This document shows, piece by piece, positions 21,644 through 35,962 of a stretch of 64,000 nucleotides of DNA (its first letter is position 1; every line of letters starts with the position of its first letter). The stretch is from Escherichia phage vB_EcoM_Lh1B: the sequence record OK428535.1. One strand, written 5' to 3'. The notes under the pieces were generated by a model. That model was not told the DNA's origin. It ran no database searches and saw only the letters and a list, made by a program, of their open reading frames with translations. The translations under genes and the position numbers were made by a program.

Positions 21644-22441
21644 ATGTCTTTTACTTCAAAACAGAATCTGCTAAAACTCATCAACGAAGAGAATAAGATA
21701 AGCCCACCGCTTACCTTTGACGATGTTGATATCGGACTGCCGGAGGTTGTGTCAGTAGACGGTCGTGATTCGGAGGTAGTCCTTACCTCGAAGATGCGCG
21801 GTGATGAAGGTACGCAAGTGATTGTGGACTACCATCGTCGTCCATTAGAGGACTACCTTAAAGGCGATGTTGCCTTTGGAGACGAGGACGTGCAAACCAC
21901 GCACGACTTACTCGCGGCGATTAACGAGCGTTTTAATCTGTCTATCTTACCTGAGGATATCGAAGATAACCCCATTGATGGACAGACGCACACAGTCGTT
22001 GCTGTTGAAACTTCCCACGAGTGGCGAAGTCAAGCGGTCATCGAGCTGAAACCTGCTACACCTCTGGCAGAAGTAGTAACCAATACAGAGTTGAGCGGTC
22101 TTCTGTACCCGGATCACCAGGACATCCAGTTGGGTCAGGCGTATATCTATTCGCGTGACATCGATTGTAGCCACATCTCTCGTTTCCTGAGCCTCTTAGC
22201 GGTCGGTATCGAGGTAGATGACACGGCGTTGGCAATCGAACTCAACAAATGTGTTCCTGAGATTTGGGTAGCTGAAGATACCCCATCCCCGTATAACCTG
22301 CGTGGTGCCACTGTCGTATTCGACGGCGTACCTGCAGACTTGCCGGGAGCAAATACGGCGTTCGCGAAAGTCGTGTCAGTGCAACTGACCGATAAATGTA
22401 CGAACTTCCAGGGCAGCCTCAACCTACACTTTAACAACTAG
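21644..22441 (+). CDS. Paralog family A member 1; putative virion/receptor-binding protein
   Basis: First of seven tandem genes. C-terminal CTNFQGSLNLHFNN motif as in A4 and a weaker version of the shared N-terminal module. Confidence 0.7.
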   Translation: MSFTSKQNLLKLINEENKISPPLTFDDVDIGLPEVVSVDGRDSEVVLTSKMRGDEGTQVIVDYHRRPLEDYLKGDVAFGDEDVQTTHDLLAAINERFNLSILPEDIEDNPIDGQTHTVVAVETSHEWRSQAVIELKPATPLAEVVTNTELSGLLYPDHQDIQLGQAYIYSRDIDCSHISRFLSLLAVGIEVDDTALAIELNKCVPEIWVAEDTPSPYNLRGATVVFDGVPADLPGANTAFAKVVSVQLTDKCTNFQGSLNLHFNN

Positions 22442-22451
22442 GAGGGTATAG

Positions 22452-23294
22452 ATGTCTATTTACGATAAGCCCTCGAAAGAGATGTTGTTAGATGCTATTA
22501 ACCGACAGAACGGATTAACGGCCAATCCACTCACATGGGAGCAGGTTGCAACTGGCTTCCCTGAGTCTGTCCAAACGCCTGGCGCTGACCGGAATACGCG
22601 TGTGCTCTTATACGGGTTGAACGGCAAGGGCTACAAAGGCAACGTTACGCTCGAATACGACCGTATCGAAATGGAAATTCTGTTCAGGAACGTAATACCG
22701 GTAGTCGTTGCCGACCCGGTAAATAAACTCTCTGAGTTGTTGCCGTTTCTGAATGCGAAATACGGCTTGTCTTTAGTTGCCGACGATATCGTTGACCAGT
22801 CAGTAAAAGATTTGGGAGAAAGCTGGTTAATCGATGTGACTATTAAGCCTGGTTGCTTGGCCTGGCAAGGTGGTTTCCGTTTACGCTTTGCGAAGTTCTT
22901 CCCGAACTTGGCGGATGTGGTGACGGATGTTGACCTCAGCGCAATTATCGCGCCGTTCGTGGTTGCTAGTAAACCACAGGCTGAGTATGTGGCGTATGGT
23001 TACGATTGGACTGAACTGCAAAAACAGTTCACTACCGATTGGGCTTACAACCGCGCAATCACCGCGGCGGATGTTGAATTGCTTAACGAAGTGGTGCCAT
23101 TAAAGTTTGCATATGTGACGGGGGCGACTGCGCAACCTGAACAAATTGCGCTTCAAGGTGCACGATATATGGGGATAACTTCAGTCACACCGAACGATAG
23201 TTACAACCCCGATTATCAGCGTGTGGCGATTATCAAGCTAGCTGCGGACAGCAACTACGCCGGTAATCTCATCCTTCACTATCTCCCGATATAA
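22452..23294 (+). CDS. Paralog family A member 2
   Basis: N-terminal module LLDAINRQN...DRNTRVLLYGLNGKGYKGNVTLEYDRIEMEILF; GGAGGG Shine-Dalgarno. Confidence 0.75.
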   Translation: MSIYDKPSKEMLLDAINRQNGLTANPLTWEQVATGFPESVQTPGADRNTRVLLYGLNGKGYKGNVTLEYDRIEMEILFRNVIPVVVADPVNKLSELLPFLNAKYGLSLVADDIVDQSVKDLGESWLIDVTIKPGCLAWQGGFRLRFAKFFPNLADVVTDVDLSAIIAPFVVASKPQAEYVAYGYDWTELQKQFTTDWAYNRAITAADVELLNEVVPLKFAYVTGATAQPEQIALQGARYMGITSVTPNDSYNPDYQRVAIIKLAADSNYAGNLILHYLPI

Positions 23295-23304
23295 GGATTT
23301 TGAC

Positions 23305-24150
23305 ATGCCACTTTTAGCCACTGCTGAAAAGATTATTATCGCGGAGGTTAACGTCGAAAACAATCTCGATTTAAAAGTCGAAGATGTGGTTTTCGGTGTC
23401 CCTGCGATTCCGACGTCTGACGAAGACCTGGCAAAAGCCAATGGTCATAACGCGATGGTGCGCATTCAGGCATTGGCCACCGCTAATGCTATCGGTGCCA
23501 CTACCGTGTATTACGATCGTGTTGACTTCGCAGACATGTTTACCGACCCAGACGGGATTCAACCTTTACGTGTTCCTGCACGTCTCGATGCTGTTTACCA
23601 GATGCATGACGTGGTCGGGTTAATTAACCAGTATTACGGTCTCAGTCTTAAACCTGCAGATGTGGTGAATACCGAAATCGACAGGAAGACATGGCGTGTG
23701 GATCTGATTGCCACGCCCACTTCTTTAGGTTGGATAGGGCAACAACAGGTACAGCTGTTACCAGGCGATGCGTTGCTTCCTGCAAACTTCGAACCCTTAA
23801 CAGTAACACCTTACGAGTATCCGTATTTTAACATCAAGGTCGGTCAAGGTGCAGTTTATTCGTATCCCTGGCGCTTTGATAATTTCGCGGAGGAATTTCA
23901 ACGACTAGGTGCTGCGATAACCGCAGAACGTCTGGCACAGATTCTCAAAACGGTCACCGGTGATAACTGGACAACGTACCGTAACCCAATCGACTTTAAC
24001 CTTCGTGAAGCCGTCGTCGTCTATAACGGGCGTAACAAAGCGGAATTACCAACCAACCCAGCAGTCGACAACGTGCTGATTGTGGAGCTGTCGTTGTACT
24101 GTCTGAATTTTGGCGGGCGTTTGTATTTGCACTACAACGACCCTGATTAA
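23305..24150 (+). CDS. Paralog family A member 3
   Basis: C-terminal CLNFGGRLYLHYNDPD motif; tandem position. Confidence 0.7.
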   Translation: MPLLATAEKIIIAEVNVENNLDLKVEDVVFGVPAIPTSDEDLAKANGHNAMVRIQALATANAIGATTVYYDRVDFADMFTDPDGIQPLRVPARLDAVYQMHDVVGLINQYYGLSLKPADVVNTEIDRKTWRVDLIATPTSLGWIGQQQVQLLPGDALLPANFEPLTVTPYEYPYFNIKVGQGAVYSYPWRFDNFAEEFQRLGAAITAERLAQILKTVTGDNWTTYRNPIDFNLREAVVVYNGRNKAELPTNPAVDNVLIVELSLYCLNFGGRLYLHYNDPD

Positions 24151-24171
24151 TCCTGAGTAAAGGAAGTAAGA

Positions 24172-25083
24172 ATGAAACCTTTAAACAAAACGTCCGATCA
24201 GCTGGTTCTGGATTTTATTAATGAGAAAAACCCAGACGCAGAACTGGAACTTTCTAAAATAACGCTCGGCACACCGACCCCTATTATCGATGAAGGTGCC
24301 GATCGCAATACCAGCATGACCCTGACTGCGAAAAAGAACTCCGGGTACATCGGTACTCAGGACGTGACTTATAATCGCCTGGAAGGCGGTGCGCTGTTCC
24401 GNAACGTAACGGCATACCTCGACGTTAAACTGCCGAAAACCACCACAGACCTGCTGACGACCCTGAACACCCAATACGGATTGAAGCTGACCGAAGACGA
24501 TATCGTTCCGGCGGCTATTCCGGAAAATACCAACCCGCCGCTGACTAACCCGAACGATCCGGACCCAGCACCGGTTGACCATGTCATTACCTTCAAAGAA
24601 GACTGCTACGCTTATCTGGGCAGCATCCCGGTTAAAATCGGTGCTAAGCCTCAGGTTGGTGAACGTCTGAGTCTGGTGGTAACACAAACCAAGCTCGACG
24701 GCCTGGTTTACCCAGATGGTCCAAGCGAAGCGAAGGGTCAGGGCTACATCTACTCTTACGGTGTAGACTGCACAGCAATCGCAGCATTCCTGAAAGTACA
24801 GGCGAAAGGTGTTATCGCTGGCGACTCTGCATTCCCGGTTGAGCTGAATAAAGTTGTGCCGGAACTGTGGGTTGCATCTGATGAGCCTGCGGATTATAAC
24901 CTGAAAGGTGCTAACGTGTTGTACGTTGGTTCTACTACTGACGATGGCACTGCTTCAGGCGACGATCCTAAGAAACCGGTTGAAGGTGCAAACACTGCTT
25001 ACAACCAGGTTCTGCTGCTGCAGCTGGATGACACTCTGTGCACCAACTTCCAGGGCGTCATGTACCTGCACTTTAATGCCTAA
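24172..25083 (+). CDS. Paralog family A member 4
   Basis: N-terminal module LVLDFINEKNP...DRNTSMTL...GYIGTQDVTYNRL; C-terminal half collinear with A1 (CTNFQGVMYLHFNA). Confidence 0.75.
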   Translation: MKPLNKTSDQLVLDFINEKNPDAELELSKITLGTPTPIIDEGADRNTSMTLTAKKNSGYIGTQDVTYNRLEGGALFXNVTAYLDVKLPKTTTDLLTTLNTQYGLKLTEDDIVPAAIPENTNPPLTNPNDPDPAPVDHVITFKEDCYAYLGSIPVKIGAKPQVGERLSLVVTQTKLDGLVYPDGPSEAKGQGYIYSYGVDCTAIAAFLKVQAKGVIAGDSAFPVELNKVVPELWVASDEPADYNLKGANVLYVGSTTDDGTASGDDPKKPVEGANTAYNQVLLLQLDDTLCTNFQGVMYLHFNA

Positions 25084-25092
25084 TTAGGCCTC

Positions 25093-25137
25093 GCTGGGAG
25101 GAGGAAATCCTCCTCCTGGCTACTCCTTTCTTTTTTG
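25093..25137 (+). terminator. Hairpin terminator or attenuator inside the paralog array
   Basis: ggaggagg-aaat-cctcctcc hairpin followed by a T-run, between A4 and A5. Confidence 0.5.
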
Positions 25138-25152
25138 GCCGAGGAGGCTATT

Positions 25153-25992
25153 ATGGCTTTATATAGTCTGTCTCAGCGACAATATCTGTACGATGCGATT
25201 AATGCCGAAAACCCGGATGCTGTTCTACCGATGGGTTTAGACAATGCTATCATCGGTACGCCGAAAGCAATCACACCGACAGCAAGCGGTGCCAATACTG
25301 AGATTATCATTCGTGGTCGTCAAGGTCGTGGCTATATCGGTCCTCAGACGTTCCGTTATAAGCGCTTGTCGCTGAACGACTTATTTAAGAACATGACACC
25401 TCAGGTAACTGCACCGAATGCCTACGGTTGGTTGAACGTGGAGTCGAAACGTACTGCGTTTGCGCAGAACCTGAACGGTCGTTATGGATTAAACCTGGTT
25501 GCAGACGATATCCCAGAACAATACGTTTATCTGAACGTAAACAACACGATGCGTATTAACGCTAGCTGTATCCAATACACTGGCAGCATCACCTTTATGT
25601 CTATCCGGGGTAAGAATAGTCTCGAAGACCTCGTGGTAAACGACATCTTGTCGGCTTTGAACCACCCTGCAGCAGCAAGCACTGGTAAGAAATACATGGG
25701 CTTCTTGACGTACGGGGAAGACTTTACTGATGAAGTGCAGGTTATGGCCTCGTTTAAGAACGGGCGAATGGACGTAGGAAGTAACTTTGATTTGGGTTAC
25801 ACGTCCAATCTGATGGCCACATTGGTCGCACGTGGGGTACCGTCGTTTGATCCGACGAACTGCACAATTACCCGCTACAAAACGAGTGAGTTGGCGACCG
25901 CCAATAAAGCGTACGATAACGTATTGCTGATTACCGGCATTCAGAACGACCCGAAAGTAATCGGCGAGTGTATGTTGCACTACAACAACTAG
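25153..25992 (+). CDS. Paralog family A member 5
   Basis: ATG at 25153 lies 6 nt after GAGGAGG; the track's TTG start is 25135. N-terminal module and C-terminal CMLHYNN. Confidence 0.75.
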   Translation: MALYSLSQRQYLYDAINAENPDAVLPMGLDNAIIGTPKAITPTASGANTEIIIRGRQGRGYIGPQTFRYKRLSLNDLFKNMTPQVTAPNAYGWLNVESKRTAFAQNLNGRYGLNLVADDIPEQYVYLNVNNTMRINASCIQYTGSITFMSIRGKNSLEDLVVNDILSALNHPAAASTGKKYMGFLTYGEDFTDEVQVMASFKNGRMDVGSNFDLGYTSNLMATLVARGVPSFDPTNCTITRYKTSELATANKAYDNVLLITGIQNDPKVIGECMLHYNN

Positions 25993-26002
25993 GAATTAGC
26001 GA

Positions 26003-26890
26003 ATGGCTATTTATCAACCTTCTAAAGACGTCCTGTTGGCAGCAGTGAACGCACAGAACTCGCTTGCTGTTAAGATGACTGACATCATCTGGTCCTCGCC
26101 AAAGGACATCCGTGGTACGGAGAAGGAAACGCTGACTAACCGTAACACGCAAATTAAAATTACGGCAGATGGGGTAACGGGCTCTACCTGGTCGGGTAAG
26201 AAAAATGTCTTCTACAACCGCATGAAGGTCGAAGACTTGTTAGTGTTGATTGGTGACACGTTGGCGATCGGCCCATCCAACGAAACCTTGTATGCGGCCA
26301 TTCCTGGACTGAACCAACGTTACGGTTTTGTTCTGGAAGAAGCTGACCTGCAGGACGCAGATATCGAATGGAACGGTGATAAGACCGAAGGTACTGTGCG
26401 TGTTGTTGCACATCCAGAGTCTATCGGTTGGGTTGGACAGGCGACATTTAAAGTCGTGAAAGGCGATGAGTCGTTAGTCTCTGCAGTCACCACTAACGTC
26501 CTGACCGGTCTGAAATACCCGAACGGTCAGATGGGTTCCGAAACCGTTACTGCGGTCATTGCAGAGGTTTATTCCTACCCGTACAACTTCACTAAGTACC
26601 GAGATGCTCTGCTGGCATACAAGCCGGGNATTCTGTCTGGNCAGCCGTTAACGGATATGGTTAACCTGCTGAAAGATATCACGGGTACTGCATGGGTAGC
26701 GACCACTTCCGCTTCCTACGGTTTGGCGGGCGCGGAGGTTATCAGCGTTGGTCTGAATGACCCTGTTGCAATGCCGACAAACGCGAAGTACAAGTATGCG
26801 CTGGTGTTGAAACTGCCTGTTACCTGTACCACCATCGTCGGAACGTTGTATCTCCAGTTCAACGATCTGGACGATCCAAGCGAGGTATAA
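26003..26890 (+). CDS. Paralog family A member 6
   Basis: N-terminal module LLAAVNAQN...NRNTQIKI...; C-terminal LYLQFNDLDD. Confidence 0.75.
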   Translation: MAIYQPSKDVLLAAVNAQNSLAVKMTDIIWSSPKDIRGTEKETLTNRNTQIKITADGVTGSTWSGKKNVFYNRMKVEDLLVLIGDTLAIGPSNETLYAAIPGLNQRYGFVLEEADLQDADIEWNGDKTEGTVRVVAHPESIGWVGQATFKVVKGDESLVSAVTTNVLTGLKYPNGQMGSETVTAVIAEVYSYPYNFTKYRDALLAYKPXILSXQPLTDMVNLLKDITGTAWVATTSASYGLAGAEVISVGLNDPVAMPTNAKYKYALVLKLPVTCTTIVGTLYLQFNDLDDPSEV

Positions 26891-26893
26891 TTG

Positions 26894-27721
26894 ATGATCA
26901 ACTATGCTAAGCCGTCAAACGAGTTGGTCTTTGACCTCATTAACCGGGATAACCCAAACCTACCTATTAAAGCGTCGCCGGCAAACTGCTACGTGGAGAA
27001 AGTGACGCAGGTTCCCGTTAATGCAGCTTCCAACAACCGCAATACGTCGGCACGCTTGCGCGGTATTCAGGGTTCCGGATTTCGAGACGCAATCACCGTT
27101 TACTACGACCGTGTGAACTTAGCGCGGTTATTGCCGTGGGGTCCTTCTGTCCAGGCGCAGTTCGTCACGTTTGACGCGCCCAACCTCCACTCAGCCTTTT
27201 CGGTGCTCTTGGATACTTACGGAGTAAACTTCTCCGCAATCGATATCCAAAACTACTCACTGTTTGGTGCCAATACCCCAAATTACACCAATACACAGAC
27301 CATTGCAGCGCTATCGACATCTCCGGCTTATATCGGTTCTGCGACGTTGCGTTATAACCGTGGTTTACCGGTACTAGACACTTCGGTGAAATCAGATGTC
27401 TTGAATGCGATTCAAGAGCCTATTTCACCGTCTCTCGGTAAGAAGTGTATTGATTTGTTGACGTACGGTATTGACTTTACCGCGTATAAAAACCTACTGA
27501 CAGTAGATGCTTCTGGCCTACCGCAGTGGGCTGGTTTGCGTAAGGTGTTGGATGACCTGGGTATTCCGAACTACGCGGGGCCACTGAACAGTAACACCGT
27601 TCAGGATGTGCCGACTTCCACCGCTCAGTTCGCTAACAAATCGTACGACCGCGTGGTTATCCAAACGGGCATCGATGAGGAAGGCGTGAAAGGCGTGGCG
27701 TACTACCACTATAACAGCTAA
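26894..27721 (+). CDS. Paralog family A member 7
   Basis: MINYAKPSNELVFDLINRDNP...NRNT...YYDRVNLARLL; C-terminal YYHYNS. ATG at 26894; the track's TTG is 26891. Confidence 0.75.
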   Translation: MINYAKPSNELVFDLINRDNPNLPIKASPANCYVEKVTQVPVNAASNNRNTSARLRGIQGSGFRDAITVYYDRVNLARLLPWGPSVQAQFVTFDAPNLHSAFSVLLDTYGVNFSAIDIQNYSLFGANTPNYTNTQTIAALSTSPAYIGSATLRYNRGLPVLDTSVKSDVLNAIQEPISPSLGKKCIDLLTYGIDFTAYKNLLTVDASGLPQWAGLRKVLDDLGIPNYAGPLNSNTVQDVPTSTAQFANKSYDRVVIQTGIDEEGVKGVAYYHYNS

Positions 27722-27768: not shown

Positions 27769-29181
27769 ATGCTATTTTACTCGAAGGAGTCGGCACTGCT
27801 TGTATACGACCAAGTCAATCGGGATAATCCTGATTTAGTTGTTAAGCTGACGCCGGCTATCGCTGCTTTAACCAGCGGCCCAACTTCAGTTACGTTAAAC
27901 CAGCGTAACACCAAAGCTGTTTTCACCGGGTATCCAGGGACAGGTGTACAAGGTAATGTTACCGTGTACTACGACCGGATTAACCTGGCCACTTTATTTA
28001 ATTTTGTGCCGACTGTGGCTATCAAAGATACAGTCTTAACGGTACGAGACGCGCTACCTGCAATAAACGACGCATTGGGGCTTACATTAGTTGCTTCTGA
28101 TTTGCAGTCACCTGACGCAAGTTTACCTAAACCGAGCGCTTCGCCGCAGACGTTGAAATTAAATATCTCAGGTAATTGCCCTGCGTTTACAGGCAGCTTA
28201 ACGATACGTTATACCGTCCCGAGTGGTGCAATTTACCCCGATTCTGGACCTGGCCCTAAAACGTTGCTGCAAGGTAACACTATCGCGGGTTATTTCGGAA
28301 CAACCACAATTGCAGAGTTGTTTACACACTCTCAACTTCTTAATGCCACTATATCGGCCGGTGCGTTACCACCGGTACATTCTGGTGCCGAAGGTTGGTA
28401 CAAGTTCTTTTACCAGGGTAGGGTTATTTACCTCCCGATTAGTCCTGTCGCTAGCTCCATCTCCTGGAATACGTTATATACAAACGGACTCGTTTACGGA
28501 ACAGACGATAATGGTAAATACCCTGCGGCGACGCCCGTTAACCAGGGACGCATCATTAGCTTTACAGGCGCAGACAACAAAAGGTTTTACTTCCGCGTTC
28601 GTCTACCTAGTGCCGGGAAAGACCCATACGTCAGCGGCACCCCAACTGCCGCTGAGTTAGCAGGTAGTGAGTTTGAGATGTTCAACTTTCTGTATAATGG
28701 AACGTGGGACAAACCGATTAACAGTTACTGGACGCTGTTCTGTTTATTGAAAGATACACTGAACACCAACGTCGCCAATCATCGCATGGCGACGTTGTCT
28801 GGAGCCAGTTGGACAAACTTAGGAAAATCATCGAGCGCAGGCAACTACTACTGGTTCCCGGTGCTAGAGTTGGTGGATAAGTCCACAGTTACCTTGGGTT
28901 TAGAAGATATCCATGGTGCGGTAGATTACAGTCTCCAACCGNNCAGNGTGTCCGCAGAAAANNCNTTTAGNCTCANNCCNTTGGTNCTCGGTAATCCAGA
29001 TACTACCGATTTCGAACCGGTAGTTGTTACTTCAGAAAACAGTTTCGCACNGCATCCGCCTGCTTTAATGCTGCCGAAGACAGTCGACTTCCAACCCATT
29101 GCGGCTACCGCTGAAATGTATACGCCACCCGACAAGACATCGTTAACGTCACTTAACGGTGAACTGGACGGCTTTAAGTAG
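27769..29181 (+). CDS. Paralog family B member 1 (A-type N-module, shared central module, NGELDGF C-terminus)
   Basis: N-terminus LVYDQVNRDNP...NQRNT...YYDRINLATLF; central PDSGPGPKTLLQGN..GYFG and W.KF..GR module; ends LNGELDGFK. Confidence 0.75.
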   Translation: MLFYSKESALLVYDQVNRDNPDLVVKLTPAIAALTSGPTSVTLNQRNTKAVFTGYPGTGVQGNVTVYYDRINLATLFNFVPTVAIKDTVLTVRDALPAINDALGLTLVASDLQSPDASLPKPSASPQTLKLNISGNCPAFTGSLTIRYTVPSGAIYPDSGPGPKTLLQGNTIAGYFGTTTIAELFTHSQLLNATISAGALPPVHSGAEGWYKFFYQGRVIYLPISPVASSISWNTLYTNGLVYGTDDNGKYPAATPVNQGRIISFTGADNKRFYFRVRLPSAGKDPYVSGTPTAAELAGSEFEMFNFLYNGTWDKPINSYWTLFCLLKDTLNTNVANHRMATLSGASWTNLGKSSSAGNYYWFPVLELVDKSTVTLGLEDIHGAVDYSLQPXXVSAEXXFXLXXLXLGNPDTTDFEPVVVTSENSFAXHPPALMLPKTVDFQPIAATAEMYTPPDKTSLTSLNGELDGFK

Positions 29182-29192
29182 AGGTATCATCC

Positions 29193-30191
29193 ATGTCTTT
29201 TACTTTGCGTTGGAAAAATCCAAACGTAATCTCTACGGTAGTAAAAATCTACCGTGACGTTAAAGATATCACACCGAGCGCTTTGCCTGAACCGATTGCA
29301 ACGCTCTCAAATGGCGAGACAGAATGGCGTGATACCACCGCCGCACCAGGCGCAACCTATTATTACCTTCTGACGGTAACCGCCAACGGTAAAACAGTGG
29401 CATCGTCTAGCCAGAAATACACCATTGAGATAAAGCGTGGGATTGGCCCAATGACTATTCTAAACGGTAACGACCGTTTAGGGTTTATGGGTGCGGTTCC
29501 TTACGACGAACAATGGCTTCCGTCGCAAATGCCACCTGCATTTTTGGCGATGTTCCCTAATCTATTAACCGATCGTGTGGCGTTGTATAAATTTACCCGA
29601 AACGGGAAAATCTATTACATGCTATCTAACACGTCGCAGTTCCCGAATACGCCTGTGGACTGGGCTTCCCTCTATCAAGCTGGTTTAGTCTATGGTACGG
29701 GCGATGCTGGTCCAGAGAACGGCCATGGAACGCTACCGGCCACTCCACAAGACGCTAAGATAGTCCACAAAGGGGATACGTACATTATGCGTCTTCCTCG
29801 CGGCCTGACGACGTCTAGCGAGCCTCCTGCGTATCCTTTCGTAGCTGACTATAATGGGAAAACCCATGATGAAATCGCTTCTCTAACCAACCCGTGTGAG
29901 TATAACGATTTACTTTACACGATGGTTAACGAGGTGCCGAAGAAACAGCGTTGGGCTAACTGGGCAACGTACAGTTATAATTATCTGGGGCAGGGTACTT
30001 TGGGAACCTCGGCAACGTATTTCGGCGGTGGTGTTCTCTGTATGGAACACGACACCACGGAAGACCGTGTGCTCCATCGTGGTATTTTTAACAATGCCGG
30101 TGGAACACCCGTATCCGCGATTCAGCGTATAAACTATTTATCACCCACCACGAAAGGGCGTTACTACCCTATCTTTGAACTGGTTGAGTAA
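29193..30191 (+). CDS. Paralog family C member 1 (FN3-like N-terminus plus shared central module)
   Basis: N-terminus VKIYRD...LPEPIATLSNGETEWRDTTAAPGATYYYLLTVTANG looks like a fibronectin-III/Ig-like fold; GTGDAGPENGHG central motif. Confidence 0.7.
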   Translation: MSFTLRWKNPNVISTVVKIYRDVKDITPSALPEPIATLSNGETEWRDTTAAPGATYYYLLTVTANGKTVASSSQKYTIEIKRGIGPMTILNGNDRLGFMGAVPYDEQWLPSQMPPAFLAMFPNLLTDRVALYKFTRNGKIYYMLSNTSQFPNTPVDWASLYQAGLVYGTGDAGPENGHGTLPATPQDAKIVHKGDTYIMRLPRGLTTSSEPPAYPFVADYNGKTHDEIASLTNPCEYNDLLYTMVNEVPKKQRWANWATYSYNYLGQGTLGTSATYFGGGVLCMEHDTTEDRVLHRGIFNNAGGTPVSAIQRINYLSPTTKGRYYPIFELVE

Positions 30192-30200
30192 GGGGCAGTC

Positions 30201-31124
30201 ATGACTATACGGTTAAGCTGGCCGTCTCAAGCCAGTAAAGGTCTTACCGCGATTGAAATCTATCGCAAAGAAGGCTGGAACGCAACTATAGACGTTTACA
30301 ATCCAGGCACGCCCCACGCAACTTTATCTGGCAACGCGGTAGAGTTTGTAGATAATATCGATACCCTGACGAAGAATACAACCTATCGTTACTGGGTAGC
30401 TGCTGTAAAAGACAGTGAACGACTTATCGGCAATCCGATTACGCAAGGATTCTATCCGGACACCGGGCCGGGTCCGCAAACTATTTTGCGTGGTGACTGG
30501 GCTTCAGGTTATTTCGGTACAGTACCGAATACAGAGTTCTTTAATACAGCCGAGTTAAAACTCATGTTAACTGCGCAGCAGGGAAACATGTTTATCTACG
30601 ACCCTCAGGAATGGCACAAGTTTATTTTCCGTGGGCGAATTGTGTTCTTCCCAGCGTCGATGCATTCGAAAACCAACTCGGTACAAATGGCGTATCAGTA
30701 CGGTATGATGTACGGGACCGATGATGTCGGAAGTATTGTTCCGCTGGGAGCCACGGCCACCAAACAAGATTGTAAGGTCACGAAGGATGGTCGTACGTAC
30801 CGTATCCGGTTACCTTACGCAGTCCCGTACGATGCGACTCTCTCAGGACAGGATTACAACAACGGCGAATGGCGAAACACAATGGGCCGTTTGTATCCTG
30901 TCAGTGCACAGTTCCCAGCCCTTGGTCTTGGTGCCATCGATTCAATACCGGCGCAAGGTTCAACTTCCCAGCCTAACGAAACAGGTGCTGCTGCATTAGC
31001 CCCTTTATGGAGCAACAACATTTTCGCTTATGCGTACGGTTATGCGCCTATAGGGATTAGTAACACCTCAGGTGTCGGGAACTCGACCACGATGTTCTTT
31101 GCTTTTGAATTAGTCTTACCGTAA
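30201..31124 (+). CDS. Paralog family C member 2
   Basis: IEIYRKEGWNATIDVYNPGTPHATLSGN...TTYRYWVAAVKD then PDTGPGPQTILRGDWASGYFG and WHKFIFRGR module. Confidence 0.7.
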   Translation: MTIRLSWPSQASKGLTAIEIYRKEGWNATIDVYNPGTPHATLSGNAVEFVDNIDTLTKNTTYRYWVAAVKDSERLIGNPITQGFYPDTGPGPQTILRGDWASGYFGTVPNTEFFNTAELKLMLTAQQGNMFIYDPQEWHKFIFRGRIVFFPASMHSKTNSVQMAYQYGMMYGTDDVGSIVPLGATATKQDCKVTKDGRTYRIRLPYAVPYDATLSGQDYNNGEWRNTMGRLYPVSAQFPALGLGAIDSIPAQGSTSQPNETGAAALAPLWSNNIFAYAYGYAPIGISNTSGVGNSTTMFFAFELVLP

Positions 31125-31137
31125 CGGAGTAAAAGCC

Positions 31138-32634
31138 ATGGGGTTGTATACAGAACCTTCAATGGAACTGCTCTGCCAACAAATTGTGCGTGACAATCCC
31201 GGTTTAGCAGGAAAAATCACCGCTGACTCCATTGGGGTCAGGGGNGTTCCTGTTGCGAAAAACGTTAACGGACGAAACACACAGATTACGTTGGTAGGAA
31301 AACCCGGTAAAGGATTTGCTGGGGAAATAACGGTATATTACGACCGGTTGAATCTGGCCAGTCTATTTAAGTCTGGCCCAAATATGGTGAGTATTCCACG
31401 TAGCGNACAAACCCATGCGGAAGNGTTACCGGCGTTCAATGAATTGAACGGGTTNAACTTAACCGCGAGTGATATCACCAGTCCAAACGTTGCATTAATG
31501 AAATACGCTACGCCGGAAACTGTAACTCTGACGGCGCACGCTAACTCCTTGTGTTATACCGGGTCATGCAAGATGACCTATGTTTACGAACCGATTGCGA
31601 TGTATCCGAAGTCGGGTCCTGGGCCAAAAGGATTAATGGCTGGTAATGAGTTATACGGATTCTTTGGGCTGGTAAGCGCGGAAGAGTTATTCACATCTGA
31701 TGAAATGGTGTATGCCCTCTATAACGGCACCACCTGGCCTAACCGCTACGCTATCAAGTGGCTCAAATTCTTTCTGAATGGGGNGGTAGTGTTTGTTCCG
31801 ACCCGTGCGNTTTGCAACGTTACCTGGGCAGACCTGTACAACAAGGGTGCAATATTTGATTCCGGAGACGCAGGACCTCGCCCGAAGTCGACTTACACAC
31901 CTGTCGATGTTGAACAGTTGAAATACATGGTAAAACGGGATGATGAAGGAACGCATTATTTCAGAATGTCTATCCCGTATTACACCGAGAACGCCGCCGC
32001 GCCTGATTGGAGTAAACCGCCGTCAATCACCTCTATCCTGTCACTGACCAGCAAATTGGGGTCGGTGAACGTATATGGGGAGTGGGGAACTCTTAGCACG
32101 ACTGATGCTAACTTCCTGGATTACGTGTGGTTACGACACCAGTTCGGTGCCGACCAAGCGTATTACCAGTCTATCAGTGGGAGCTATCGTTCATACACCT
32201 ACATCTACACCTCTTCTGGCTTTTGGCCAATCCTGGAGATGTTTGATGTTGCCAATGAACCTGTGCCGTTGATTGACGAAGGTGCAGAATTAACATGGGC
32301 ACCGTCCGTGGTTACTCTGACGGACATCGACCAAAATGAATCGCTTCGTGTGGTGCCTATTACGGAAACCTCCGCTGCAGCGAATCCACGTCCGTTAGTT
32401 TTCAACACCGACAACACCGAAACTGCCACCCCTGCCTGGGTGCGGGAAACGTCATCAGACTCACCACGTCCTCTGCTTGCCACGACGGACAATGATGAAC
32501 GTGCATATTCCGTCGCGGTAACAGGCATGGCTAGCGTTAAGATTAGACCGATTATTCTCACGACTGACCAAATCGCCCAACCTTCAAAAATTACTCTGGG
32601 CGATACTAACGGTGAGTTGGATGGATTCCAATAA
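31138..32634 (+). CDS. Paralog family B member 2
   Basis: N-module LLCQQIVRDNP...GRNTQI...YYDRLNLASLF; PKSGPGPKGLMAGN..GFFG; ends TNGELDGFQ. Confidence 0.75.
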   Translation: MGLYTEPSMELLCQQIVRDNPGLAGKITADSIGVRXVPVAKNVNGRNTQITLVGKPGKGFAGEITVYYDRLNLASLFKSGPNMVSIPRSXQTHAEXLPAFNELNGXNLTASDITSPNVALMKYATPETVTLTAHANSLCYTGSCKMTYVYEPIAMYPKSGPGPKGLMAGNELYGFFGLVSAEELFTSDEMVYALYNGTTWPNRYAIKWLKFFLNGXVVFVPTRAXCNVTWADLYNKGAIFDSGDAGPRPKSTYTPVDVEQLKYMVKRDDEGTHYFRMSIPYYTENAAAPDWSKPPSITSILSLTSKLGSVNVYGEWGTLSTTDANFLDYVWLRHQFGADQAYYQSISGSYRSYTYIYTSSGFWPILEMFDVANEPVPLIDEGAELTWAPSVVTLTDIDQNESLRVVPITETSAAANPRPLVFNTDNTETATPAWVRETSSDSPRPLLATTDNDERAYSVAVTGMASVKIRPIILTTDQIAQPSKITLGDTNGELDGFQ

Positions 32635-32646
32635 GAGGTAACGACA

Positions 32647-33636
32647 ATGGCTTTTACAATTCGTTGGNCGAACAATAACCCTGGGGCTTCGACCGTGAAG
32701 CTGTACCGCGACACCAAACCTCTGGTGCGTACGGCATTACCTGAACCCCTGGCAACGTTCACTAACGGGGAAACTGAGTATACTGACCGAACAGCGATAC
32801 TGGGGACAACGTATTACTACATGACCACTGTGACAGTGGGAAGCCGAACACTGTTCAGTCCGCAGAAATCAATTCTAATTCAGAACCGTCGCGGTATCGG
32901 CATCGTGGCTCCACAGTACGGTGATGACCGCTTTGCGTATTACGGGTACGTGGCGTACGGNGAATTACCTAGNGCGGGNGATTTTCCGCCAGGGTTTGNG
33001 GCCCTTTCTGGATACGACCCAACTGTTAAGCCGGGCTTGATGAAGTTCCAGCTAGACGGTAAAATTCTGTATCTGTTTAGTGGTCTTCGTGTGAACGGCA
33101 ACACGCTGTATAGCCGTGATGCGATTTATAACGCGGGTTTGCTGTACGGTGTGGCGGGACCTGGTCCGGAAGGCGGTCATGGCGATTTACCTGACGTTGA
33201 CCAGGCTGGGGAGTTTACGTGGTTGGGTGACCGCTATCGGATGCGCCTGCTGCGCGGTTTAACACTCGACAGTGAAAGCCCGGTCATGACACTCGATGCA
33301 CAGTGGGACGGTAAACTCCATGACGCGTCACCGTATACTGCCGATAGCGAATACAACCGACTCATCTATGGGATAAGTAGCTGGTTCCCAGAAAAGAAAA
33401 AAGTGATGTCCCTGATAAAGTGGTCGAACTCCAGCATATTTGGAAATGGATNNNTGGTGGCAGGCCGTGGGGCGCATTGTCAGGAGTTTGACCCAGAACN
33501 TAAGTTGGGGCTGACGCGCGGATTGGCGGCGGTGGATTCCACTGATACCGTGGATAACCTCCAGCGTATACAACATGTCCCTGGTGCGACCGTGGGCGGT
33601 ATTTGGATTCCAGTAATCGAGCTTATCGAGGATTAA
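32647..33636 (+). CDS. Paralog family C member 3
   Basis: Collinear with C1 (VKLYRD...LPEPLATFTNGETEYTDRTAILGTTYYYMTTVT...GVAGPGPEGGHG). Confidence 0.7.
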   Translation: MAFTIRWXNNNPGASTVKLYRDTKPLVRTALPEPLATFTNGETEYTDRTAILGTTYYYMTTVTVGSRTLFSPQKSILIQNRRGIGIVAPQYGDDRFAYYGYVAYXELPXAXDFPPGFXALSGYDPTVKPGLMKFQLDGKILYLFSGLRVNGNTLYSRDAIYNAGLLYGVAGPGPEGGHGDLPDVDQAGEFTWLGDRYRMRLLRGLTLDSESPVMTLDAQWDGKLHDASPYTADSEYNRLIYGISSWFPEKKKVMSLIKWSNSSIFGNGXXVAGRGAHCQEFDPEXKLGLTRGLAAVDSTDTVDNLQRIQHVPGATVGGIWIPVIELIED

Positions 33637-33638
33637 TC

Positions 33639-34538
33639 ATGCCTATTACATTACACTTTGCACAACGGAAGCCACAGGCGCTCGATAACATCGAAATCTA
33701 TCGCAAGACGCCGGGCAACGCCACAATTGATGTTAATGCACCGGGAACGCCTCTGGCAACCCTTCCGGGTGACGCTACATCGTACGAAGACAACGCTGTG
33801 GAAAACAACACCACTTACCGTTATTGGATAGCTGCGGTTAAAGACGGTGAGCGTGTCTTCAANACCCCNNCCNCCCAAGGGTTTTTTTTANACNCCGGGN
33901 CNGGCCCCCANAAANTGTTATACGGNGNCNGGCACNCNGGATACTTTGGAANANNAACNCCAGNAGANTTATTCACTAACACGGAACTGAACGGCCTCGT
34001 GGTGAATATGTTCAGTTCCGCCGTTGGTGCCTGGCATAAATTCATTTACAAAAACCGTATTCTGTTTATGTCCGATAACTCGATAATAAACGCTAGCCCG
34101 CAGTTCATTTATAACCAGGGGATGATGTACGGCCAGGATGGCAATGGATATGTACCGGGCTGGGCTACTGCACGTAACCAACGGCGCACGGTGACGAAAA
34201 ACGGTTACGAATACGTGGTGCGCTTGCCGTATTTGTTCGACTACAAATTCTGGACGTCTTACGTTGGAAGCGGTAACACTGAGTTGTATCTCGACGGTGA
34301 GTGGTTTAACACCTTCGCGCGCCTGTACAACNACAGGGGGCGGTTTCCGCGCTTTTACGAACTTCCGGTCGGTTCAATCGATTCGGTTACTGCCCAACAA
34401 TCTGCATTCTTTGCGGCTATGAATAACACGTCCAGTCAGTGGTACAACCGTCCACCTTACCCTGAGTCGCCGTCGTGGAGTAACTACGGTACCACTACAA
34501 TACGCTCCATTGCGGTACTTGAACTCGTTCTGCCTTAA
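33639..34538 (+). CDS. Paralog family C member 4
   Basis: Collinear with C2 (IEIYRKTPGNATIDVNAPGTPLATLPGD...TTYRYWIAAVKDGERVF; WHKFIYKNR module). ATG at 33639 follows GAGGA; heavy N content at 33863-33968. Confidence 0.65.
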   Translation: MPITLHFAQRKPQALDNIEIYRKTPGNATIDVNAPGTPLATLPGDATSYEDNAVENNTTYRYWIAAVKDGERVFXTXXXQGFFLXXGXGPXKXLYXXXHXGYFGXXXPXXLFTNTELNGLVVNMFSSAVGAWHKFIYKNRILFMSDNSIINASPQFIYNQGMMYGQDGNGYVPGWATARNQRRTVTKNGYEYVVRLPYLFDYKFWTSYVGSGNTELYLDGEWFNTFARLYNXRGRFPRFYELPVGSIDSVTAQQSAFFAAMNNTSSQWYNRPPYPESPSWSNYGTTTIRSIAVLELVLP

Positions 34539-34628: not shown

Positions 34629-35948
34629 ATGATCAACTATAACAAACCTGTCATGCAGCTGGTTTGGGATCAGATTAATCGTGATAACCCGCAGCTCAAG
34701 AAACCACTCAACGCAACCAACGTGGCGTTATTACAAGGTCCTTTAACCAATGCCTTGCGCGATGGCCGCAACAGCCGTATAGTGGTAAACGGATTACAGG
34801 GTGGCGGTTACAGCGGTAAGATGGACATCTACTACGACCGCTTAAACCTTTCGCAGTATTTTAAAGGCGTCAGCGTACCGGTTAAAGTACCTTATCGGGC
34901 GACGTCCTACCGCGACATCATCGACCGGATTTCCGCAGCTTGTGGGCTGGTGCTTACTGCTGACGATTTAACGTATCCTGACAGCCAGTTTGCAATGATC
35001 ACTGTGGCAACGGGCGATCGGACGGTGGCGATTAAATCGGATAACCCCGCATTCACGGGTCACATTCCTATTAGCTTTATTCGTGAAGAGCCCAGCTTTG
35101 CCGACTTGTACCACACCACCGAAACCGGAGCTTGGGAACCCATGGATGTTTACAGCACGGTCTATCGACTCGACTGGAGCATGTACACCCAACAGATAAT
35201 CAATATCCCGATGGGTACCCCGCTGCGACTAAACAGTAACTCGTACATGACCCAGTTCATCGCGGCGCTGTCGGCATGGTCGGGCATCCCGTTCACTATC
35301 GGTAATGCTGCTACTGATAACCCGTATGACCTCTATGGGTATGTCGCTACACGCAATAACAACCCAGGCTTAGACCCTGATATGCGTGGGGAGTACAATT
35401 ACTGCGTGAAGTTGACGCCACCTGAGGATATGGGTAATCTCCGCCGTCCGTTCTTCTTGCACTTTGGTCCGAAAAATAACGTGGCCNATTTGGCGCAGGA
35501 AAAGGANGNCGAACGTTATGCGCGTTACATGAGGTTCCGGGAAACCAGCCCAAATTCGATGAGCGTCACGTTGTATCAAAACGAGTACGTGTTGACTCGG
35601 GCAGAATCGCCTGAAACTGCGGATGATTTAACGGGTTCCCCGTATGGCACTCGATACTGTACCGGGAGTATTCGACGGCTGATGCAACACGCGTTTCCGA
35701 CCGAAGAGATGTTCCAAGAAAGTATTGCTAACCGGCGTCGGGTACTGTACCACACTGCTTACACCACCACGACATCAGCTATTACTTACCAGGGACTATA
35801 CCGTAACGGATACCAATCCAAACAAATGACGAGCCTCTACTCGAATTACTGTAACTATTTCATCTATTACGACCCAAGCAAAGGCGGCTATATGGTCTAC
35901 AGTCCATATAGCAAAACCGCCCCGGTCCCTTGGTATCCACCGCTATAG
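34629..35948 (+). CDS. Paralog family D member 1 (A-type N-module, distinct C-terminus)
   Basis: MINYNKPVMQLVWDQINRDNP...GRNSRIVV...YYDRLNLSQYF; C-terminus ...SPYSKTAPVPWYPPL shared with the next gene. Confidence 0.75.
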   Translation: MINYNKPVMQLVWDQINRDNPQLKKPLNATNVALLQGPLTNALRDGRNSRIVVNGLQGGGYSGKMDIYYDRLNLSQYFKGVSVPVKVPYRATSYRDIIDRISAACGLVLTADDLTYPDSQFAMITVATGDRTVAIKSDNPAFTGHIPISFIREEPSFADLYHTTETGAWEPMDVYSTVYRLDWSMYTQQIINIPMGTPLRLNSNSYMTQFIAALSAWSGIPFTIGNAATDNPYDLYGYVATRNNNPGLDPDMRGEYNYCVKLTPPEDMGNLRRPFFLHFGPKNNVAXLAQEKXXERYARYMRFRETSPNSMSVTLYQNEYVLTRAESPETADDLTGSPYGTRYCTGSIRRLMQHAFPTEEMFQESIANRRRVLYHTAYTTTTSAITYQGLYRNGYQSKQMTSLYSNYCNYFIYYDPSKGGYMVYSPYSKTAPVPWYPPL

Positions 35949-35962
35949 ACTAAGGTGTCACC

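Follow-up and report, generated by a model that had tools for sequence, protein, structure and literature searches.

The NGELDGF tails of Seoulvirus DUF7941 proteins: relationship to the family linker and a possible docking role

Described until 2026 as being of unknown function, DUF7941 proteins account for ~20 virion proteins of the Salmonella jumbo phage SPN3US and are present in thousands of copies per Goslar virion. In a preprint of that year (bioRxiv 10.64898/2026.04.21.720040), AlphaFold3 predictions dock the linker of one Goslar protomer, with or without its C-terminal domain (CTD), on the N-terminal domain (NTD) of the next; negative stain of purified gp22 shows filaments; gp23, which consists of NTD and linker only, reaches ~2140 copies per virion and gp22 ~580; and a head-to-tail phiKZ gp126-gp127 dimer fits an unexplained density beside the gp127 NTD on the baseplate. 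Neither SPN3US nor a sequence motif of any kind comes up in the preprint. In SPN3US the family is known from the proteomics of the Thomas laboratory as 'paralog family B' (gp83, gp138-154, gp160 and gp237); gp138-154 and gp160 have been identified in purified virions by mass spectrometry (PMC5694885, PMC10052503), gp160 being a high-abundance protein with >300 copies (PMC5694885). Here we analyse 64,000 nucleotides of Escherichia phage vB_EcoM_Lh1B (OK428535.1; this whole stretch is called the window), which carries the same genes and in which a seven-residue peptide, NGELDGF, recurs at the C-terminal ends of three proteins.

A recurrent C-terminal peptide on three related proteins

The window belongs to a Seoulvirus, an SPN3US-like jumbo phage (phiKZ-like chimallivirus), and is 95-97% identical to SPN3US and its relatives; the same figure, 95-97% at the DNA level, holds for SPN3US gp145, gp148 and gp160 against their window counterparts. 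These counterparts, all on the + strand, are the three carriers of the peptide: B1 (27769..29181, 470 aa, gp145 orthologue), B2 (31138..32634, 498 aa, gp148 orthologue) and a stand-alone gp160-type protein (41033..41581, 182 aa). As the preliminary description had reported, the ending is exact: B1 terminates …TSLNGELDGFK, B2 …GDTNGELDGFQ and the 182-aa protein …TTNGELDGFVSQNNVSM, so that 1-8 residues separate NGELDGF from the C-terminus in all three. Six-frame translation yielded exactly three copies (29155-29175, 32608-32628 and 41534-41554), compared with 5.7e-5 expected from the amino-acid frequencies of the window, and no further match was found in the six frames of the window, relaxed patterns included. 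The 21-nt coding stretches of the three copies share 16-18 of 21 bases, and all 3-5 differences are synonymous, which argues for selection on the peptide and rules out recent gene conversion of the copies. The repetition of NGELDGF is thus real and kept at the protein level.

The conserved unit is longer than the heptapeptide, comprising at least 14 residues with the pattern K-T/I-x-L-x-x-x-N-G-E-L-D-G-F. It spans residues 456-469 of B1 (KTSLTSLNGELDGF, 29134..29175, + strand), followed by a lysine and the stop codon, residues 484-497 of B2 (KITLGDTNGELDGF, 32587..32628, + strand), followed by a glutamine and the stop codon, and residues 161-174 of the gp160-type protein (KTDLSTTNGELDGF, 41513..41554, + strand), where it lies right behind the last NTD strand and precedes a variable 8-aa end.

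The three carriers had been described as otherwise different proteins, a view that does not hold, as all of them start with a DUF7941 NTD. Their Pfam PF25613 scores are 110.6 bits for B1, 99.5 bits for B2 and 43.5 bits for the 182-aa protein, the gathering cut-off being 27 bits. B1 and B2 are paralogous along their whole length (29% identity across 507 columns, E 3e-57), the last 47 residues of the 182-aa protein align to residues 451-497 of B2 with 19 of 48 columns identical (40%), and in PHROG profile comparisons each type cross-hits the C-terminus of the other. The PF25613 matches of the three proteins stop at model positions 101-153 of 276, and no C-terminal globular domain follows; B1, B2 and the 182-aa protein are members of the CTD-less kind, like Goslar gp23, and their family membership is unharmed. 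The NTD fold agrees with the solved phiKZ gp127 NTD; a PDB sequence search with the 182-aa protein and B1 as queries returned nothing significant, and phiKZ gp127 was not among the PDB matches of the gp160-type model in Foldseek.

The motif as the post-NTD linker of the family

Upstream of B1, seven tandem full-length DUF7941 paralogues (21644..27721, + strand, 265-303 aa, SPN3US gp138-144) carry the motif internally, between NTD and CTD, for instance as LAEVVTNTELSGLL (22064-22105), LSLVVTQTKLDGLV (24667-24708) and LVSAVTTNVLTGLK (26474-26515), all on the + strand. When these seven proteins were aligned by MAFFT with Goslar gp22, gp31, gp33, gp34 and gp23 and with gp160, the gp160 tail fell throughout on the post-NTD segment, represented for example by LSLVVTQTKLDGLVYP, LAEVVTNTELSGLLYP, LDDIIAIKELDGLKF and QLATVLADNVADGFV. 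An hhalign comparison of the gp160 family (1-177) with the full-length family (1-181) gave a probability of 98.5% (E 2.7e-15) and placed the tail in the same register as MAFFT. The linker consensus under KTDLSTTNGELDGF, that of the full-length paralogues and of these Goslar proteins, reads L..φT.T.L(D/N)G(F/L).YP, and that behind the NTD in the wider family L...IT.T.L.G(F/L).YP. Judged from these alignments, NGELDGF is the conserved core of the DUF7941 post-NTD linker in its Seoulvirus/Erwinia-phage version.

The wider family was collected by searching an NTD-only profile against 1.84 billion cluster representatives, which returned 3329 proteins at E <= 1e-3; the analysis covers 143 of the best 150 of these matches, those already retrieved by earlier searches being left out. 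A local hidden Markov model (HMM) found 2-10 tandem NTDs in 65 of the 143 representatives. Behind the 102 NTDs followed by a significant linker motif came the next NTD in 50 cases (median gap 5 residues), another domain in 46 and the end of the protein in 6; behind a further 17 NTDs the linker is replaced by the B-type junction, where the lectin-like domain starts (…YPxSGPG…). A strict regular expression captured too few linkers, matching 29% of NTDs against a background of 8%; an ungapped position-specific scoring matrix (PSSM) took its place and recovered the linker from six of the window's seven full-length paralogues. The family far exceeds earlier descriptions in size and includes proteins >2000 aa long; the local HMM gives up to 10 tandem NTDs and the remote search up to 13 matched stretches per protein. 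Triple-NTD proteins finish in repeated LLDDG(G/S) or φTGFD motifs, and another subclass of second NTDs finishes with LH..VN.TLPS.GY.

In most homologues the linker is thus internal, before the CTD or, in tandem arrays, before the next NTD. Where the protein stops behind it, the linker becomes terminal, as in the gp160, gp83 and gp237 types: SPN3US gp83 (end …RALDGFRPGEFLNG / …KLAQLVTKRALDGFRPGEFLNG) and gp237 (end …TELNGLVYDVSDMAQA / …ISKLITVTELNGLVYDVSDMAQA) both consist of NTD and linker only, and proteins stopping right behind the motif also include gp166 of Erwinia phage Machina (…DGELDGFN) and the proteins P0188 and P0257 (…L(G/T)GF). In some tails the core is present two or three times (…ITGFDDQPLTGFDGEPITFFDAE). 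The preliminary description had stated that the idea of a terminal tag would fall if the motif belonged to a longer conserved domain with no special terminal position in homologues; this is largely what we find, although a terminal position does recur where a protein ends behind the linker and in the B-type proteins.

Conservation of the tail extends well beyond the window. Among 60 gp160 orthologues, down to 44% identity and drawn from Seoulvirus, many Erwinia phages, Cronobacter phage CR5 and metagenomes, KTDLSxTNGELDGF is kept and followed by 0-8 variable residues; the motif is the third most conserved 10-aa stretch of these 60 proteins, and information content collapses right behind F174. 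Most B-type homologues, down to 27% identity, carry the terminal motif: in full-length B-type cluster representatives with <50% mutual identity, a terminal …NGEL.GF is strict in 11 of 16 and degenerate in 2 more. The third B-type gene of SPN3US, gp151, whose cassette is absent from the window, finishes …KTDLATANGELNGF. Machina keeps the motif in its B2 and B3 orthologues and in gp166, an extra gp160 paralogue (L008 23338-23838).

The B-type architecture separates this peptide from its domain. B1 opens with a DUF7941 NTD (aa 1-150), which is followed by a C-type-lectin-like domain in the centre (aa ~152-373) and a repeat extension that is disordered (aa 380-455), and closes with the motif; B2 has the same architecture. 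The lectin-like domain and the repeat region, which stand between NTD and motif, place the latter ~300 residues from the NTD. As far as sequence comparison can tell, the linker is portable, being separated from its NTD in B-type proteins and still conserved. The C-type-lectin-like module of B1 and B2 is probably glycan-binding. The extensions before the motif (28906-29133 in B1, 32350-32586 in B2) are degenerate repeats, G.PKT(V/I)DF.P(I/V)..F being the pattern of the B1 lineage and (R/Q)P(L/I)...T(T)D that of B2/B3, and are similar to the final NTD strand together with the front half of the tail of gp160 (QPIVKTD). These repeats might offer extra docking sites, e.g. to the neighbouring C and D proteins described below via their FN3-like N-termini.

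A candidate docking peptide and its alternatives

The present comparison shows that the motif is homologous to the family linker, conserved and portable, and it defines the domain architecture of the carriers. From this indirect evidence and from the Goslar preprint we infer with moderate confidence that the motif serves as a donor peptide, docking on the next DUF7941 subunit at that subunit's NTD, and has a role in filaments. The linker segment of one subunit would dock on the NTD of the following one, so that head-to-tail chains of subunits form flexible filaments. With its acceptor domain and donor tail, the 182-aa gp160-type protein would be the minimal abundant building block, whereas B1 and B2 would keep the acceptor NTD at the N-terminus and carry a gp160-type donor tail at the very C-terminus, and could be spliced into or onto gp160-type chains as lectin-bearing host-recognition units. 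Candidate chain ends are the motif-less B orthologues and a 722-aa protein in which the NTD is combined with a gp38-like adhesin domain. The position of the motif directly before the next NTD in covalent tandems gives Rosetta-stone-type support for docking. In AlphaFold2 (AF2) the tail of B1 alone is disordered (pLDDT, the predicted local distance difference test, is 82-94 for the NTD and below 50 for the extension 380-470), which is structurally neutral as to docking and would be expected of a peptide that folds on a partner. Of the suggestions made in the preliminary description, docking to a common virion partner is therefore the best-supported reading, with the NTD of fellow DUF7941 subunits as the likely partner; the notion of a dedicated terminal tag does not survive.

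Several points weigh against such docking. The underlying filament model comes from a preprint and rests mainly on AlphaFold3 predictions. In the AF2 monomer of the gp160-type protein (mean pLDDT 94.6) the tail is confidently placed, with pLDDT 92 for residues 161-170 and 75 for residues 171-180, and could be packed in cis. The PSSM scores the tails weakly, at 7.2-7.4 bits, values exceeded by ~8e-4 of null windows, and misses the B1 tail. In five clusters of B1 orthologues, among them those of the Erwinia phages Machina, Huxley and Caitlin, the protein ends 14 residues sooner (…YTPPES); as some B1 orthologues genuinely lack it, the motif is dispensable for at least the B1-type subunit. An annotation artefact was ruled out for the motif-less Machina B1 orthologue, whose next gene lies directly behind the stop codon and which has no motif in other frames. 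Finally, SPN3US proteomics assigns the family to the head, as it is present in tailless particles (PMC5694885, PMC10052503), whereas the filament model anchors it on the baseplate; the head location from SPN3US proteomics and the baseplate location from phiKZ and Goslar structures are in conflict.

The confident placement of the gp160-type tail, together with the position of the motif directly behind the last NTD strand in nearly all family members, would suit a cis element, that is, a tail that packs on its own NTD and completes or caps the fold and does not join subunits; the lectin module of B1 and B2 would then be a large insertion in a discontinuous DUF7941 N-domain. We consider this fairly unlikely, since the B1 NTD folds confidently while its tail is disordered, B1 orthologues without the motif exist, tandem-NTD proteins and multi-copy tails agree better with docking in trans, and the AlphaFold3 models put the linker on the neighbouring protomer (bioRxiv 10.64898/2026.04.21.720040). 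The head assignment raises a different alternative, in which the tail anchors to a virion component outside the DUF7941 family, for instance to the surface of the capsid, as a Hoc-like decoration, or to a protein at the periphery of the baseplate: SPN3US family B, including gp160, is equally or more abundant in tailless heads (PMC5694885, PMC10052503), and a low-resolution SPN3US map has extra density at the centre of each hexamer (PMC7552025). However, no DUF7941 protein is modelled in the phiKZ and Goslar capsids solved at 3.5-3.6 Å, where the density at the hexon centre is accounted for by C-terminal arms of the capsid protein itself, arranged as a barrel; the only DUF7941 domain in a virion map, that of phiKZ gp127, sits on the baseplate via its NTD and not its linker; and self-assembling filaments could co-purify with heads, so that we regard such an anchor as rather improbable.

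A protease or sorting tag had also been proposed, whereby the motif would mark proteins for prohead-protease cleavage or targeted incorporation and then be removed. The motif does include a glutamate and is found at the C-terminus or close to it, and many phiKZ-like head proteins are cut after glutamate. Yet its N-G-E differs from the A-x-E sites reported for the SPN3US prohead protease (ATE, AQE, ASE, AVE and ALE) and from the A/S/G-x-E pattern of gp245/phiKZ gp175-type substrates, family membership is reported for none of the nine processed SPN3US proteins (PMC5694885, PMC10052503), gp160 migrates at its full 18.5 kDa with 89% coverage, and the motif is internal in most homologues; a processing signal is very hard to reconcile with these observations and we judge it highly improbable. 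A search for the C-terminal peptide (…TDLSTTNGELDGFV when intact) in the supplements of the SPN3US papers gave no match. A C-terminal chaperone of the Peptidase_S74 type was considered and rejected, as the three proteins have no Pfam or PHROG match of this kind and the B1 C-terminus is predicted to be disordered.

Docking on a neighbouring DUF7941 subunit, the reading we favour, can be extended tentatively, and only as a possibility, by regarding the gp160-type tail as a portable, specificity-coded plug. The carriers of KTDLSxTNGELDGF (gp160, B1, B2 and B3) might then dock on one class of NTD socket, by which gp160 homopolymers might take in lectin-bearing B subunits; chain ends might be formed by adhesin fusions and by orthologues without the motif, and multi-copy tails of other lineages might create branch points. 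Seoulvirus filaments might, as part of the same possibility, be tethered to the head besides, or instead of, the baseplate. If true, this would describe a programmable heteropolymeric 'hair' for host capture, its composition set by the B-C-D cassettes that a phage carries.

Neighbouring genes and comparison with described systems

Each B gene is followed on the + strand by a pair of C and D genes. C1 and D1 (29193..31124, 332 and 307 aa) have an FN3-like N-terminus and share the lectin-like domain of B1 (phrog_1062 / phrog_3589 cross-hits), and have neither a DUF7941 NTD nor the tail; C2 and D2 (32647..34538) are a second copy of the pair. The C/D proteins finish (…ELVE, …ELVLP, …ELIED) at the exact point that divides the central domain from the extension in B proteins, and their orthologues are virion proteins in the SPN3US proteomics literature. 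The B-C-D triplet is present in two copies in the window (27769-34538) and in three copies in SPN3US (L002 6519-16657) and in Machina, and the Seoulviruses SaP7 and SPFM19/21/22 align in two pieces spanning ~7 kb, which indicates that cassette copy number and order vary among close relatives.

Two further DUF7941 proteins of 439 aa and 722 aa are encoded at 34629..38131 on the + strand. The 439-aa protein comprises NTD, linker, CTD and an extra domain. The 722-aa protein (35963-38131) contains the NTD(s), the linker DINTVYTVTNIILTL directly behind the first NTD and a T4 gp38-like glycine-rich adhesin domain (GP38 PF05268 match, E 8.9e-17), and its orthologue P0136 gives two NTD matches. The two proteins have a common C-terminal domain (phrog_6409) and both finish …PW(Y/V)(P/R)P…. 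At 26003-27721, two neighbouring DUF7941 genes abut in-frame with zero intergenic bases, given the listed TTG start at 26891; this TTG is probably not the true start, the SPN3US annotation starting one codon downstream. The whole window contains 259 ambiguous bases (N) at 225 sites, mostly single-base and densest at 1-2, 33-34, 37-39 and 62-63 kb, with clusters falling in the D2 gene and in the gp38-like adhesin gene; these clusters look like consensus calling over a population polymorphic at host-range genes.

More distant comparisons concern single features. The lectin-like domains recall the C-type-lectin-fold receptor-binding domains of phage fibres and of the variable proteins of diversity-generating retroelements (DGRs; Mtd, TvpA, TaqVP), with weak scores, and those domains lack the motif; no DGR was seen in the window, where no search aimed at DGRs was made. 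Donor-strand or donor-peptide pili (chaperone-usher and type V) are alike only in the proposed working mode, in which a short terminal extension completes or occupies a site on the next subunit and polar, non-covalent head-to-tail fibres take tip adhesins. They differ in that there is no relationship in sequence or fold (Foldseek noise hits only) and neither chaperone nor usher is involved here, and AF2 shows the gp160-type tail as a coil with a short helical turn, not as a β-strand.

The SPN3US papers, which treat the same genes, defined paralog family B by PSI-BLAST and virion location alone and describe no motif, linker or assembly mechanism; the text of one of them (PMC5694885) lists 'gp161' in the family where its tables mark gp160, SPN3US_0161 being an unrelated minus-strand gene. 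The closest described system is that of the DUF7941 filament proteins of Chimalliviridae, Goslar gp22/gp23 and phiKZ gp126/gp127 (PDB 9XQD; the phiKZ baseplate entry is cited as 9QXD in the Goslar preprint). It has the same NTD, by Pfam, hhalign and fold match, and the same post-NTD linker motif; Goslar gp23 and gp160 both consist of NTD and linker only and are both of high copy number; and in Goslar/phiKZ as in the window, family members are fused to carbohydrate-binding or adhesin domains. B1 and B2 differ in carrying the linker at the extreme C-terminus, behind the lectin-like domain and a ~90-aa disordered repeat region, whereas the Goslar fusion protein gp86 keeps the linker adjoining its NTD. 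KTDLSxTNGELDGF, the motif in Seoulvirus and Erwinia phages, is moreover a distinct, tightly conserved variant, and the SPN3US family is assigned to the head, unlike the baseplate location in Goslar and phiKZ. The system as such is known from the recent preprint, and the new details are the displaced-linker architecture of the B proteins and the definition of the linker at the level of a motif. They narrow the contact proposed between subunits to a defined peptide of 14 residues, separable from its domain yet conserved, which would offer a concrete handle on the filament model and a way to engineer the choice of receptor-binding modules on display.

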